Positions 56,700 to 59,299 of a stretch of 64,000 bases of DNA are shown in pieces (position 1 is the stretch's first letter; each line of letters opens with the position of its first letter). The stretch is taken from contig JBGTAJ010000048.1 of the NCBI GenBank assembly GCA_041749915.1, positions 17,844 through 81,843 on the forward strand, read 5' to 3'. This DNA is from Flavobacteriales bacterium (GTDB lineage: Bacteria; Bacteroidota; Bacteroidia; Flavobacteriales_F; PHOS-HE28). A program made the position numbers and the translations under genes. A model generated the notes under the pieces. It ran no database searches. It had not been told where the DNA came from and saw only the letters and a program-made list of their open reading frames with translations.

Positions 56700-57560
56700 C
56701 TAACCGGGGAAGACGCTCGCTGCCTCGACCACACAGCGGTCCAGCTGTGCCAGATCAAGGCCGGTGCGGATGCCCTGGTCGTCCAGGTGATGCACGAAGA
56801 GTTCGGTCTGCAGGTTGCCTACCAGCTCATCCTCGGCCATGGGGCAACCTCCGTAGCCCTTGATAGCGCCATCGAAACGACGGCAGCCACCGTCCCAGGC
56901 CGCCTGGGTCTTGGCCTTCCAGTTCTCGGGCGTGCAATGCAGGTGGGCGCCGAACTCCACCATGGGCAAGGCCGGGATCAGTGCACGGAACATGCTGGTG
57001 ATATCCTCGGGCCGGGCCACACCCACCGTGTCGCTGAGCGCTATGATGCCCACCCCCAGCTCCTTCACCAGACGGTCCACCCAGTGCAGGGCCACCTCGG
57101 GGCTCCACGCATCGCCGAAAGGGTTGCCGAAGGCCATGCTGATGTATACCACGAGTTCCTTGCCGTTCGCGCGGGCCAGTTCCGCGATCCGTGCAGTGCG
57201 CTCCCACGAACCATCGATGCCGGTGTTGGTGTTCCGCTGCTGGAAGGTCTCGCTGATGCTGAAGGGATAACCGAGGTAGGTGACACTTGCTTGCTTCACC
57301 GCTTCTTCCGCACCGCGTTCATTGGCGACGATGACCAGCAGCTTGCTCGTGGACCCGCGACGGTCAATGCGGGCGAGTACTTCGGCCGTGTCCGCCAGTT
57401 GCGGAATCGCCTTGGGGCTCACGAAACTCCCGATATCGATGGTGTCGAAGCCCACCTTCAGCAGTTCGTTGAGGTACTTCACCTTCATCTCCGTGGGGAT
57501 GAACGGTCCGATGCCCTGCATCGCGTCGCGCGGGCATTCGATGAATTTTACGTCGGGCAT
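56700..57560 (-). CDS. Hydroxymethylglutaryl-CoA lyase
   Basis: ECPRDAMQG, SFVSPKAIPQ.ADT, SDTVG, HLH, GYGGCPMA. Confidence 0.92.
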   Translation of the reverse strand: MPDVKFIECPRDAMQGIGPFIPTEMKVKYLNELLKVGFDTIDIGSFVSPKAIPQLADTAEVLARIDRRGSTSKLLVIVANERGAEEAVKQASVTYLGYPFSISETFQQRNTNTGIDGSWERTARIAELARANGKELVVYISMAFGNPFGDAWSPEVALHWVDRLVKELGVGIIALSDTVGVARPEDITSMFRALIPALPMVEFGAHLHCTPENWKAKTQAAWDGGCRRFDGAIKGYGGCPMAEDELVGNLQTELFVHHLDDQGIRTGLDLAQLDRCVVEAASVFPG

Positions 57561-57599
57561 GTCAACCTCGGATGATGTGTGAAATGCAGGGAATGCGTG

Positions 57600-58075
57600 A
57601 ACCACGGATGCACACGGATGGACACGGATAAATGCCTGATCGGATCAAAGTACCACCCGCTCCCATGTCAGCTTGGCTCGCTTGAAGTTGATGATCAGCC
57701 CCACCCGGAGCCCGGTGAGACCAAGGTAGTTGAGCATCTGTCCTTTCTCATGGTCTCCGATCCTGTCGATGGTCTTTGTATCCACCACCACCCTGTTCCG
57801 AACGATCAGGTCGGGGACGAACAGTCCAACTTGTATGCCTTTGTAGACGACATCGAATTGCGGTTGCTGCGTGAACGGTATTCCACGCAGCTTCAGTTCC
57901 ACGGCAAGCGCATTCTCATAGGGTTTCTCCAAGAGCCCATGTCCCAGCACGTTGATCACTTCCATCGAAGCGCCGATGATCTCCTCGGTCTCTGCAGCGA
58001 ATAGAAGTTTGCCTGTATCCATACCTATCCGTGCTTGGTTCAGACATCCGTGTCCATCCGTGTGCATCCGTGGTT
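57600..58075. mobile_element. GxxExxY cassette bounded by a perfect 30-bp inverted repeat
   Basis: AACCACGGATGCACACGGATGGACACGGAT (57600-57629) and its exact reverse complement (58046-58075). Confidence 0.7.
57645..58022 (-). CDS. GxxExxY protein (PD-(D/E)XK nuclease fold)
   Basis: GLLEKPY, PDLIV...VVDTK, QMLNYL, GLIINF. Confidence 0.93.
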   Translation of the reverse strand: MDTGKLLFAAETEEIIGASMEVINVLGHGLLEKPYENALAVELKLRGIPFTQQPQFDVVYKGIQVGLFVPDLIVRNRVVVDTKTIDRIGDHEKGQMLNYLGLTGLRVGLIINFKRAKLTWERVVL

Positions 58076-58083
58076 AATTACCC

Positions 58084-59136
58084 TTAATGACCACGGCCAG
58101 TGAAGGCCCGATTGATCCGCTTCACGAGCGCGGGTCCTTCGTAGATCAAGCCGGTGTAAACCTGCACCAGGTCGGCGCCGGCATCCAGTTTCTCCAGGGC
58201 AGCTTCGGCACTGTCGATGCCGCCTACGCCGATGATCACGAGCGGACGTGGAAGGCGTTCACGCAGGTAACGGACCACCTCGGTGCTGCGCGCACGCACA
58301 GGAGCACCGCTCACGCCGCCCATGCCCATGGCCTCCACTTCGGCTTTGGGTGTGGTCAATGCTTCACGCGAGATGGTGGTGTTGGTGGCGATGACCCCGG
58401 CAATGCCGCTCTCCTTCACCACCGCACAGACATCGTCCAACTGGGCATCCGTCAGGTCGGGCGCGATCTTCAGGAGGATCGGTCTCGAGCACATTTTCCG
58501 ATCTCCTGATCCGCTGATCTTCCGATCCCCCAGTTCCTTCAACCTTCCCAGAATTTCAAGAAGTGGTCCCTTCTCCTGCAGCGCGCGCAGACCGGGGGTG
58601 TTCGGACTGCTCACGTTCACCACGAAATAGTCCACCACGGGGTAAAGGGCCTCGAAGCACTTCACGTAATCGTCCACCGCTGCCTCGTTCGGCGTCACCT
58701 TGTTCTTGCCGATGTTCCCTCCGACGATGATGCCCGGGGTCCGCTTGCGCAGGCGTTCCACGGCCTCCACCACCCCGCCGTTGTTGAACCCCATGCGGTT
58801 GATGAGCGCACGATCGGCAGGCAGTCGGAACAGTCGGGGTGCTTCATTGCCCGGCTGGGGCAAGGGCGTGAGCGTGCCGACCTCGATGAAGCCGAAGCCC
58901 AGGGCCGACAGGGCTTTGACATGTTTCGCATCCTTGTCCATGCCGGCGGCGAGGCCCACGGGCGACGGGAAACGCAATCCCATGACCGTGACCGATGCCT
59001 TGTCCGGTGGGCGTTCCCCGCCTACCAAGGCCAGCAGACCGGGGACCTTGGACGCCAGTTCAAGCAGGTTGAAGGTGAGGTGATGCGCCCGCTCCGGGGA
59101 CAAGCGGAACAACAGCGGGCGGATGAGGGTGTACAT
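58084..59136 (-). CDS. pyrD: Quinone-dependent dihydroorotate dehydrogenase
   Basis: GLAAGMDK, QPGN..PRLFRL, INRMGFNN.G, NVSSPNTPGLR, KIAPDL, ATNTT. Confidence 0.97.
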   Translation of the reverse strand: MYTLIRPLLFRLSPERAHHLTFNLLELASKVPGLLALVGGERPPDKASVTVMGLRFPSPVGLAAGMDKDAKHVKALSALGFGFIEVGTLTPLPQPGNEAPRLFRLPADRALINRMGFNNGGVVEAVERLRKRTPGIIVGGNIGKNKVTPNEAAVDDYVKCFEALYPVVDYFVVNVSSPNTPGLRALQEKGPLLEILGRLKELGDRKISGSGDRKMCSRPILLKIAPDLTDAQLDDVCAVVKESGIAGVIATNTTISREALTTPKAEVEAMGMGGVSGAPVRARSTEVVRYLRERLPRPLVIIGVGGIDSAEAALEKLDAGADLVQVYTGLIYEGPALVKRINRAFTGRGH

Positions 59137-59195
59137 GCGCGGCAAAGCTAGACAGCACGATCGGAGTGGATCCCCGTCCATTCCACCGGGAGCTA

Positions 59196-59299
59196 GTCTT
59201 GTAGGGACGCGATATCGGTAGCAGTTCCGGCACATACGCGAAAACAGAGTCCCGTAGGGACGGCATATGGGTAGCCCCGTAGGGACGGCATATGGGTAC
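59196..59299. repeat. Three GTAG-type REP-like units
   Basis: GTCTTGTAGGGACGCGATATCGGTAG (59196), GTCCCGTAGGGACGGCATATGGGTAG (59249), CCCCGTAGGGACGGCATATGGGTAC (59275). Confidence 0.75.

Follow-up and report, generated by a model that had tools for sequence, protein, structure and literature searches.

The 23S rRNA of Leptospira holds one case of an ORF-bearing intervening sequence (IVS). Another, in helix 45 of the Coxiella burnetii 23S rRNA, is described in PMC4990558 as a 428-nt unit whose S23p four-helix-bundle ORF lies in an inverted-repeat stem loop; three heptamers stand in tandem, a fourth, degenerate copy lies immediately ahead of the ATG, and the stem is cut by RNase III. In REPIN/RAYT systems, according to the descriptions in PMC3116915 and PMC3337134, a gene is flanked by inverted copies of a repeat, the same repeats are also dispersed as gene-less doublets and singlets, and no target duplication is made; RAYTs are reported to be vertically kept (PMC5581495). 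Short non-coding copies with inverted ends, scattered in intergenic DNA, are familiar from MITEs and the IS200/IS605 group. IS200/IS605 elements make no target duplication, and homing endonuclease genes, including PD-(D/E)XK ones such as I-Ssp6803I, are free-standing or intron-borne.

Here we describe a cassette, 476 bp in total length, which shares traits with each of these systems. Like the IVS, it falls in the range of about 430-480 nt and has one small ORF, looped out by a stem of inverted repeats, with tandem heptamer-type units ahead of the start and one extra beside the ATG, with the ORF sense to the host transcript and no transposase, and with a sporadic distribution, which for the IVS has been read as horizontal transfer (PMC4990558). 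It differs in lying between protein-coding genes and not in rRNA helix 25/45 (it has no Rfam match), in carrying a PD-(D/E)XK nuclease where the IVS carries S23p, and in being built of 10-nt units with an 8-nt core where the IVS has contiguous heptamers. RNase III excision has been shown for the Coxiella IVS (PMC4990558), whereas for the cassette it is a prediction. With REPIN/RAYT systems it shares the flanking inverted repeats, their dispersal as gene-less doublets and singlets, and the lack of a target duplication. Nevertheless, the RAYT enzyme is an HUH Y1 protein and that of the cassette a hydrolytic PD-(D/E)XK one; REPs are single imperfect palindromes and the cassette repeats phased tandem units; the cassette gene is patchy and moves between junctions and phyla; and the spacers of cassette arm pairs are mostly not conserved between copies. 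The likeness to homing endonuclease genes, as far as it can be read from sequence, consists in a small nuclease gene, presence/absence and recurrent filling at a conserved site and no target duplication, the difference being that the cassette has no intron or intein and is enclosed by arms that also exist alone. From MITEs and insertion sequences it is set apart by the lack of a DDE or HUH transposase and of a target duplication.

The features of the locus are given below; "the window" denotes the whole 64-kb stretch of DNA analysed.

56700-57560, minus strand: HMG-CoA-lyase-like (HMGL-like, by Pfam) host gene, downstream of the cassette on the transcribed strand
57564-57573, no strand: degenerate single arm unit AACCTCGGAT, 3 nt from the lyase start codon
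57591-57599, no strand: nine bases GAATGCGTG outside the left arm, common to the gene-less C55 copy
57600-57629, no strand: left arm, stop-proximal (3') on the gene's strand, AAC plus three CACGGAT units
57645-58022, minus strand: GxxExxY protein gene, 125 aa (PF13366, TIGR04256)
58027-58033, no strand: fourth, isolated unit, ATCCGTG on the plus strand, 4 nt upstream of the ATG on the gene's strand
58046-58075, no strand: right arm, start-proximal (5') on the gene's strand, exact reverse complement of the left arm
58084-59235, minus strand: pyrD (dihydroorotate dehydrogenase, DHO_dh by Pfam), upstream of the cassette, ORF from the first ATG

An earlier note on this DNA had described an exact 30-bp inverted repeat of three CACGGAT 10-mers per arm, a further partial unit at 58027-58033, no transposase, no obvious target duplication, and a GxxExxY gene enclosed between pyrD and the HMG-CoA lyase gene. 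All of this was borne out. A repeat search returned a 30-nt inverted repeat (57600-57629 / 58046-58075) with 100% complementarity and 416 nt between its arms, each laid out as AAC-CACGGAT-gca-CACGGAT-gga-CACGGAT, i.e. as three 10-nt units. The two-unit pattern CACGGATNNNCACGGAT has 4 matches in the 64-kb window, every one within the arms, where 0.04 were expected, and a count of 4 was reached in none of 100 shuffles. The isolated unit ATCCGTG is indeed present, and in G070 (L152) an isolated unit also stands between the upstream arm and the start codon. No transposase and no partner gene were found among the ORFs inside the arms, and no target duplication was seen at the ends of the window element or at six other filled junctions (7 junctions read). 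Matches to both PF13366 and TIGR04256 identify the enclosed gene, which lies on the same strand as the lyase gene and pyrD. The true start of pyrD is probably later than the first ATG, judging from relatives, whose tblastn matches begin near residue 30.

Further details of the surroundings recur in other copies. The degenerate unit at 57564-57573 occupies the position of the first arm unit of the filled sites in three congeners (G010, G014, G015), and the junction sequence catgNNaacCACGGAT of L049, L051 and L053 has catgtcaacctcggat as its counterpart in the window. A gene-less copy elsewhere in the same genome (G000:C55:5225-5264) matches window positions 57591-57629 at 98%, so that the repeat shared with C55 starts 9 nt outside the left arm. 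On its inner side the left arm continues into AAATGCC, and other copies too have an inward extension, AATGC. Pfam gave no match for three further mechanical ORFs of the interval. Nor did it for a 141-aa ORF on the plus strand (57579-58004); this ORF lies opposite the GxxExxY gene, in antisense, and most likely arises from the high G+C content. A search of 57300-58400 against Rfam at E up to 1 gave nothing except a chance snoRNA match, and a promoter and terminator scan of the cassette, which is of sigma-70 type and does not cover Bacteroidota promoters, gave 0 sites.

The protein belongs to the PDDEXK_3 family (PF13366, E 3.1e-35, 121.5 bits, cut-off 22; TIGR04256, GxxExxY, 129.5 bits, cut-off 35), for which a table row in PMC3424549, the sole functional entry located in print, gives the function as unknown. 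The family motif reads G29-L-L-E32-K-P-Y35, and the PD-(D/E)XK catalytic residues are P70-D71 and D81-T-K83, plus E32. In an alignment of 80 sequences G27, G29, E32, Y35, K83, Y99 and N112 are invariant, D71 is conserved in at least 90%, and position 81 is D or E, i.e. (D/E)81-x-K83 is conserved. A structure model from the 80 sequences (pLDDT 95.4) has a restriction-endonuclease-like alpha/beta core, with Cas4 SSO0001 as its best structural match (Z 8.4, rmsd 2.6, 97 aligned), followed by BpuSI (7.4), SwaI (7.3) and Hjc (6.7); Foldseek pointed to lambda exonuclease and Cas4 at E about 4e-4. Among these structural matches no closer subfamily stands out. With active site and fold intact in alignment and model, the protein looks like an active metal-dependent nuclease. 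It is without a match in PADLOC and PHROGs, and the sole match of a PDB sequence search was 2n5u (E 0.23). Relatives of similar length, searched with this protein as the one query, number 4104, and its own genome (G000) holds three GxxExxY genes, the other two being 63% and 30% identical to the window protein.

Next, the pyrD/lyase junction was compared across 24 further species genomes of this genus. In 17 of these congeners the site is empty, the pyrD stop and lyase ATG abutting or overlapping with 4-22 nt between matched ends. Four (G004, G012, G014, G015) carry a GxxExxY gene with CACGGAT arms, one (G010) has arms and no gene, one (G011) retains a decayed gene fragment between duplicated pyrD ends, and in the last (G021) a contig break falls at the junction. 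Since the two genes are also adjacent in two outgroup families (G033, G038), the empty site is the older state. In a tree of the flanking proteins G000 groups with the empty-site genomes G018, G017 and G020, and the other filled genomes form a separate cluster; forcing G000, G004, G010, G012, G014 and G015 into one clade costs 86.5 units of lnL (AU p 1.4e-10). The flanking-gene tree thus rejects a single origin of the filled sites, with the caveat of recombination, because it is a tree of flanking proteins and not of species. By this comparison, which the earlier note had proposed as a search for an empty site, the 476-bp unit is evidently inserted DNA, and its patchy distribution, rather than vertical conservation, is upheld. 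Presence or absence at one conserved site among relatives, with apparently more than one gain, is a pattern of the homing type.

Closely related copies of the filled site exist. The G054 cassette is 98% identical to this one and differs in one arm by a single change that the other arm does not compensate; a lake metagenome contig of 2789 nt spans 57200-58483 with 55 differences (~96%), by its sequence a filled site in a related strain. An RNA-library contig of 181 nt covers 57845-58025. In public runs, searched as assembled contigs, none joins the flanks across the cassette. Two contigs do join left arm to right arm, with 21 and 38 other letters between; an excision product was considered as their source and rejected, as they are gene-less pairs from elsewhere. 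A fused palindrome, CCACGGATCCGTGG, was likewise tried as a recurrent excision scar and dropped, being present in 2/61 genomes versus 1 for the control; the G010 junction, which ends in T and not G, is unmatched in that search.

Some filled junctions are visibly rearranged: the lyase 5' end is duplicated in G004 (L050) and pyrD 3' fragments are duplicated in G011 (L054) and G012 (L052). In G012 a left-arm unit of 72 nt is additionally repeated in tandem arrays, both at the junction and at other places in the genome (e.g. G012:C1:402668-403131).

In a wider sample of 61 genus genomes, where a cognate gene was defined as a homologue of 68% identity or more, homologues of 68-98% identity were found in 18/61, at six junctions. 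The pyrD/lyase junction is filled by a homologue in ten genomes (including G047, G054, G061, G069 and G070), that between lgt and a radical-SAM gene in three (G003, G020, G021), that between dprA and cysS in two (G045, G060), and that between an LPG-synthase and a beta-lactamase gene in one (G022). G019 carries the gene between M23 and tatA, a junction that is empty in G000, and G075 carries it next to dnaG. The gene is on the strand of its identified neighbours in all six genus contexts (both neighbours at five, dnaG alone at the sixth), and at the junctions where this is readable a few bases part the arms from the stop codon on the upstream side or from the ATG on the downstream side. Across phyla co-orientation is a weak tendency, 63/78 upstream and 51/71 downstream by crude ORF calls.

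We then examined 80 GxxExxY loci from many phyla including archaea, 79 of them with enough flank to test, and used windows shifted by 700 nt as a control. A bracketing inverted repeat with a score of at least 14, our threshold, was present at 55/79 loci and in 1/147 shifted controls; at a score of at least 18 the numbers were 36 loci and 0 controls. The six homologues found on viral contigs are all bracketed too, by inverted repeats of 20-56 nt; in five the repeats reach at least 48 nt and consist of tandem units. Of the two paralogues in G000, one has arms of ACGGGAAT-type 10-nt units and the other an exact 18-nt pair of CGCGACG units. The GxxExxY gene in phased inverted arms is thus, on sequence evidence, a large cross-phylum cassette family; other GxxExxY genes do have periodic inverted arms, a point that the earlier note had wished to see checked.

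The type of arm follows the protein. In a tree of the 80 proteins, the GAT/AAT-type class of 10-nt arms coincides with a single clade (17/17 proteins), whose hosts are Bacteroidota, Planctomycetota, Verrucomicrobiota and Cloacimonadota. The class requires 1 change on the tree versus 15.6 in shuffles, none of 500 shuffles being as low, so that the expected co-variation of arm type with protein clade was indeed found. GAG-type 8-nt arms accompany 51/63 of the remaining proteins. Verrucomicrobiota and Planctomycetota are found in both big clades; therefore arm type follows protein, not host. The window's exact 30-nt arm sequence even occurs beside a protein that is only 73% identical (L059), the two arms of that locus not being identical to each other (bracket score 27 over 30 nt). 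Such co-variation can arise from linkage alone.

Arms are more numerous than genes. A search of G000 with an arm profile found 19 arms at 13 loci (E below 0.1), comprising 1 gene-carrying pair, 7 gene-less pairs of ~90-165 nt (C52, C55, C91, C99, C170, C172, C245) and about five solo arms; there is one gene-carrying copy per arm type in this genome. Both arms of the C55 pair are identical to those of the window (30/30), and its 110-nt interior is unrelated. Across the 61 genus genomes the two-unit pattern has 0-124 matches versus 0-2 for the reversed control, with a median of 34 in genomes with a cognate gene and 7 in those without (MWU p 1.7e-5, related genomes not being independent). At least 20 arm matches are nevertheless present in 10/43 genomes where no cognate gene was found. 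The fraction of exact cores in three of these (G056 41/68, G043 32/58, G068 23/40; completeness 99% for G043 and 97% for G068) is similar to that in gene-bearing genomes (G000 16/33, G070 62/87), i.e. no decay of arms was seen where no cognate gene was found. Arms that are numerous without the cognate gene, with exact cores as frequent, count against strict dependence on the gene. A restriction of arms to the gene is contradicted by the gene-less pairs and solo arms of G000 and by the intact arms of G043 and G068. As to the earlier note's proposal of a minimal selfish element, an inserted, patchy cassette is supported, and the evidence speaks against a simple unit of nuclease plus its own arms; the genome-wide count of solo arms that it called for gives about five, next to the 7 gene-less pairs, so arms also occur independently.

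Some gene-less copies have a vehicle of their own. In the complete genome of G070, five arm pairs lie at the centre of copies of a MITE, which is 250 nt long and has CAGGGCTATCGGGTCTT as its terminal repeats, and 9-10-bp target duplications were present in 5/5 copies read.

G070 L142, L147, L149, L155, L156 and G000:C99:660-900: CAGGGCTATCGGGTCTT MITE with a CACGGAT arm pair in the middle and inner GC hairpins

This MITE is a separate element merely carrying an arm pair, and it is too rare to explain most arms. In G012 its ends lie ~1.2 kb apart three times, and these elements are perhaps its parent insertion sequence. Among the G070 pairs outside the MITE, L139 and L153 share interiors; the interiors of the others are common to no other pair. 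Pairs are located at gene ends, some beside terminator-like hairpins.

Other repeats are associated with the arms. Small GC-rich palindromes of the TCCCGAGGCCTCGGGA and CCTGCCGGCCGGCAGG types are inserted within arm units of gene-less pairs, and look like a further tiny repeat family nested inside arms.

G000 C91:5780-5830, C170:64950-64975, C172:7335-7365 and C245:7725-7755: nested GC-rich palindromes

In G070, solo right arms of different families (units ATCCGTG, ATCTGTGtc and ATCTGCG) stand in series within single intergenic regions (L146, L150, L158), most of them preceded by a short cggcaacggcatt-like word. At L189 (G043:C21:3300-5000) an arm pair ~560 nt apart encloses no gene and several palindromic repeats of the GACCCCTnnnGGGGTCG type. 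Arm pairs seem to collect other repeats.

Which property of the arms is preserved was examined in 23 arm pairs with three recognisable units, the core positions being pre-selected by the search pattern. The core plus the preceding A is near-invariant, and each unit has two freely varying spacer positions. Within an element, the spacers of one arm match those of the other no better than shuffled partners do (0.61 versus 0.56 overall, 293/5000 shuffles as high; 0.73 versus 0.66 in gene-carrying pairs; 0.54 versus 0.54 in gene-less pairs), i.e. there is no covariation above that level, and mismatched spacers are present in many gene-less pairs. Neither is the excess of sense-strand G.U among arm mismatches significant (74 versus 62, p 0.35, 74 arm pairs). 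Because spacers match no better than shuffled ones and G.U pairs are not in significant excess, the perfect 30-bp complementarity of the window element is not the rule. The rule, as these alignments have it, is an 8-nt word at fixed phase and in inverted orientation, so what appears conserved is the phased core and not arm pairing. To us this points to recognition by a sequence-specific reader, not to selection for pairing as such. Still, the sense transcript of the window element is predicted to fold with its arms paired (dG -198.1 kcal/mol, z -4.9). The RNA stem offered as an alternative in the earlier note is physically plausible on this prediction and has a precedent in the rRNA IVS; it draws no support from covariation or G.U bias.

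Upon examination of PF05635 genes, which encode the four-helix-bundle 23S-IVS protein, in G000, G012, G015 and G070 (n=16), we detected the same packaging around an unrelated cargo: 9/16 have bracketing inverted repeats with a score of at least 14, made of 7-8-nt tandem units such as GATCAGAn or GTTGTCAn. Five in G000 have their own inverted arrays.

G000 C322:10366-10923: PF05635 gene with own inverted arrays
G000 C28:2005-2575: PF05635 gene with own inverted arrays
G000 C66:764-1305: PF05635 gene with own inverted arrays
G000 C47:1489-2116: PF05635 gene with own inverted arrays
G000 C258:10056-10709: PF05635 gene with own inverted arrays

Since PF05635 genes are packaged alike, the design does not need the GxxExxY nuclease. 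It is common to two unrelated small proteins and the classical IVS.

From sequence comparison we hold with high confidence that the locus is an inserted selfish cassette, a member of a widespread family whose build resembles that of an IVS and whose population structure resembles that of REPIN/RAYT systems. As to how it spreads, we incline, with a little less than even confidence, to a selfish cassette that lacks a transposase, has a nuclease acting on the phased arms around it, and moves by breakage and recombinational copying, not by transposition. A hydrolytic PD-(D/E)XK enzyme cannot by itself join DNA, which weighs against this reading. The cassette was inserted in the sense direction into an operon, where a few bases part pyrD from the lyase gene. 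We infer the following course of binding, cutting, repair and RNA processing. A nuclease oligomer would bind the 8-nt cores ACACGGAT, one per helical turn, and would cut at or beside arm arrays; host recombination would then repair the break from another arm-bearing copy, so that arms, and sometimes the gene, would be copied into the site in a homing-like manner. Gene-less pairs and solo arms would stand to the gene-carrying copy as REPINs do to RAYTs, a majority that is not autonomous. Transcription probably reaches the cassette from pyrD, no promoter having been detected by a sigma-70-type scan that does not cover Bacteroidota, and the arms might close into a 30-bp RNA stem which RNase III could remove as in the rRNA IVS, limiting harm to the operon. 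Several observations speak against the nuclease acting on the arms: intact arms without a cognate gene, the packaging of PF05635 genes, and the spread of some G070 gene-less copies inside a MITE. Moreover, one gene-carrying copy per arm type in G000 is not what efficient homing into arm pairs predicts. A broader version, in which GxxExxY cassettes, four-helix-bundle cassettes and rRNA IVS form one "hairpin cassette" superfamily, the arm units of each binding the encoded protein and spread proceeding by protein-directed breakage and recombinational copying, is possible, if on balance doubtful.

The perfect 30-bp stem predicted in the sense transcript (z -4.9), a gene on its identified neighbours' strand in 6/6 genus contexts and wedged between stop and start, the lack of any promoter-like site (in a sigma-70-type scan, which does not cover Bacteroidota) and a design common to two unrelated cargo families would all agree with generic packaging at the RNA level, by which the element would be a transcriptional parasite of operons and rRNA whose stem is cut by RNase III, leaving host messages usable, and whose nuclease is unconnected with the arms and serves some other purpose. 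The Coxiella IVS is a known case of RNase III excision at a stem of this sort (PMC4990558). We consider this explanation unlikely, however: what is conserved is an 8-nt core at fixed phase, with free spacers and complementarity not kept; the sense strand shows no G.U bias and many gene-less pairs have mismatched spacers; core type tracks protein clade across phyla, a match that a sequence-blind RNase III stem would not need; and co-orientation across phyla reaches only 63/78 upstream and 51/71 downstream by crude ORF calls.

In another explanation, an unlinked enzyme, or else general recombination between short tandem repeats, would move the arms, and GxxExxY would be a passenger, e.g. a toxin- or defence-like nuclease whose addictive effect would stabilise the cassette. 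Arms do spread without the gene and inside an ordinary MITE, different cargos share one design, and arm arrays, tandem 72-nt arrays and duplicated ends of flanking genes point to slippage or recombination. Yet the protein has no PADLOC or PHROGs match and no partner gene lies inside the arms, while the strict match of arm class and protein clade across phyla demands a long-term linkage that a free passenger would lose, which makes this course improbable in our view. Alternatively, the arms might be useful to the host, in message stability, termination or nucleoid organisation, and the nuclease might maintain or disperse them on its behalf, as in a domesticated system of REPIN/RAYT kind. One gene copy per arm type amid its own repeats and many gene-less pairs, higher arm counts where the cognate gene is present, and pairs at gene ends, some by terminator-like hairpins, would fit. 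But within one genus the gene has a patchy distribution and occupies six junctions, and gene and arms have crossed phyla together. RAYTs, which PMC5581495 describes as vertically kept, are unlike it in this; its fold differs from HUH Y1, and arms persist intact without it. Domestication seems to us improbable too.

Cassettes of this kind are widespread and seemingly without a published description. A search of the literature on GxxExxY, PDDEXK_3, PF13366 and TIGR04256 found nothing on repeats; that on TIGR02436/PF05635 found no such cassettes outside rRNA, and that on STRR passing mentions only. The finding ties a very large GxxExxY family to a fixed DNA design, namely phased inverted arms, insertion at operon junctions and gene-less copies, and so provides a testable substrate. 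It also links the family to an old question, the nature and movement of ORF-bearing rRNA intervening sequences. For annotation, many otherwise unexplained short tandem repeats at gene junctions, and many breaks of metagenome contigs, are accounted for by the arms. If the nuclease acts on the arms, the cassettes would be a compact, sequence-programmed DNA- or RNA-recognition system with many natural specificities, the arm core types seen being CACGGAT, CACAGAG, CGCGACG and ACGGGAAT. A hairpin-cassette superfamily, if true, would amount to a new way for DNA to move, present in bacteria and archaea and in the viruses of both.
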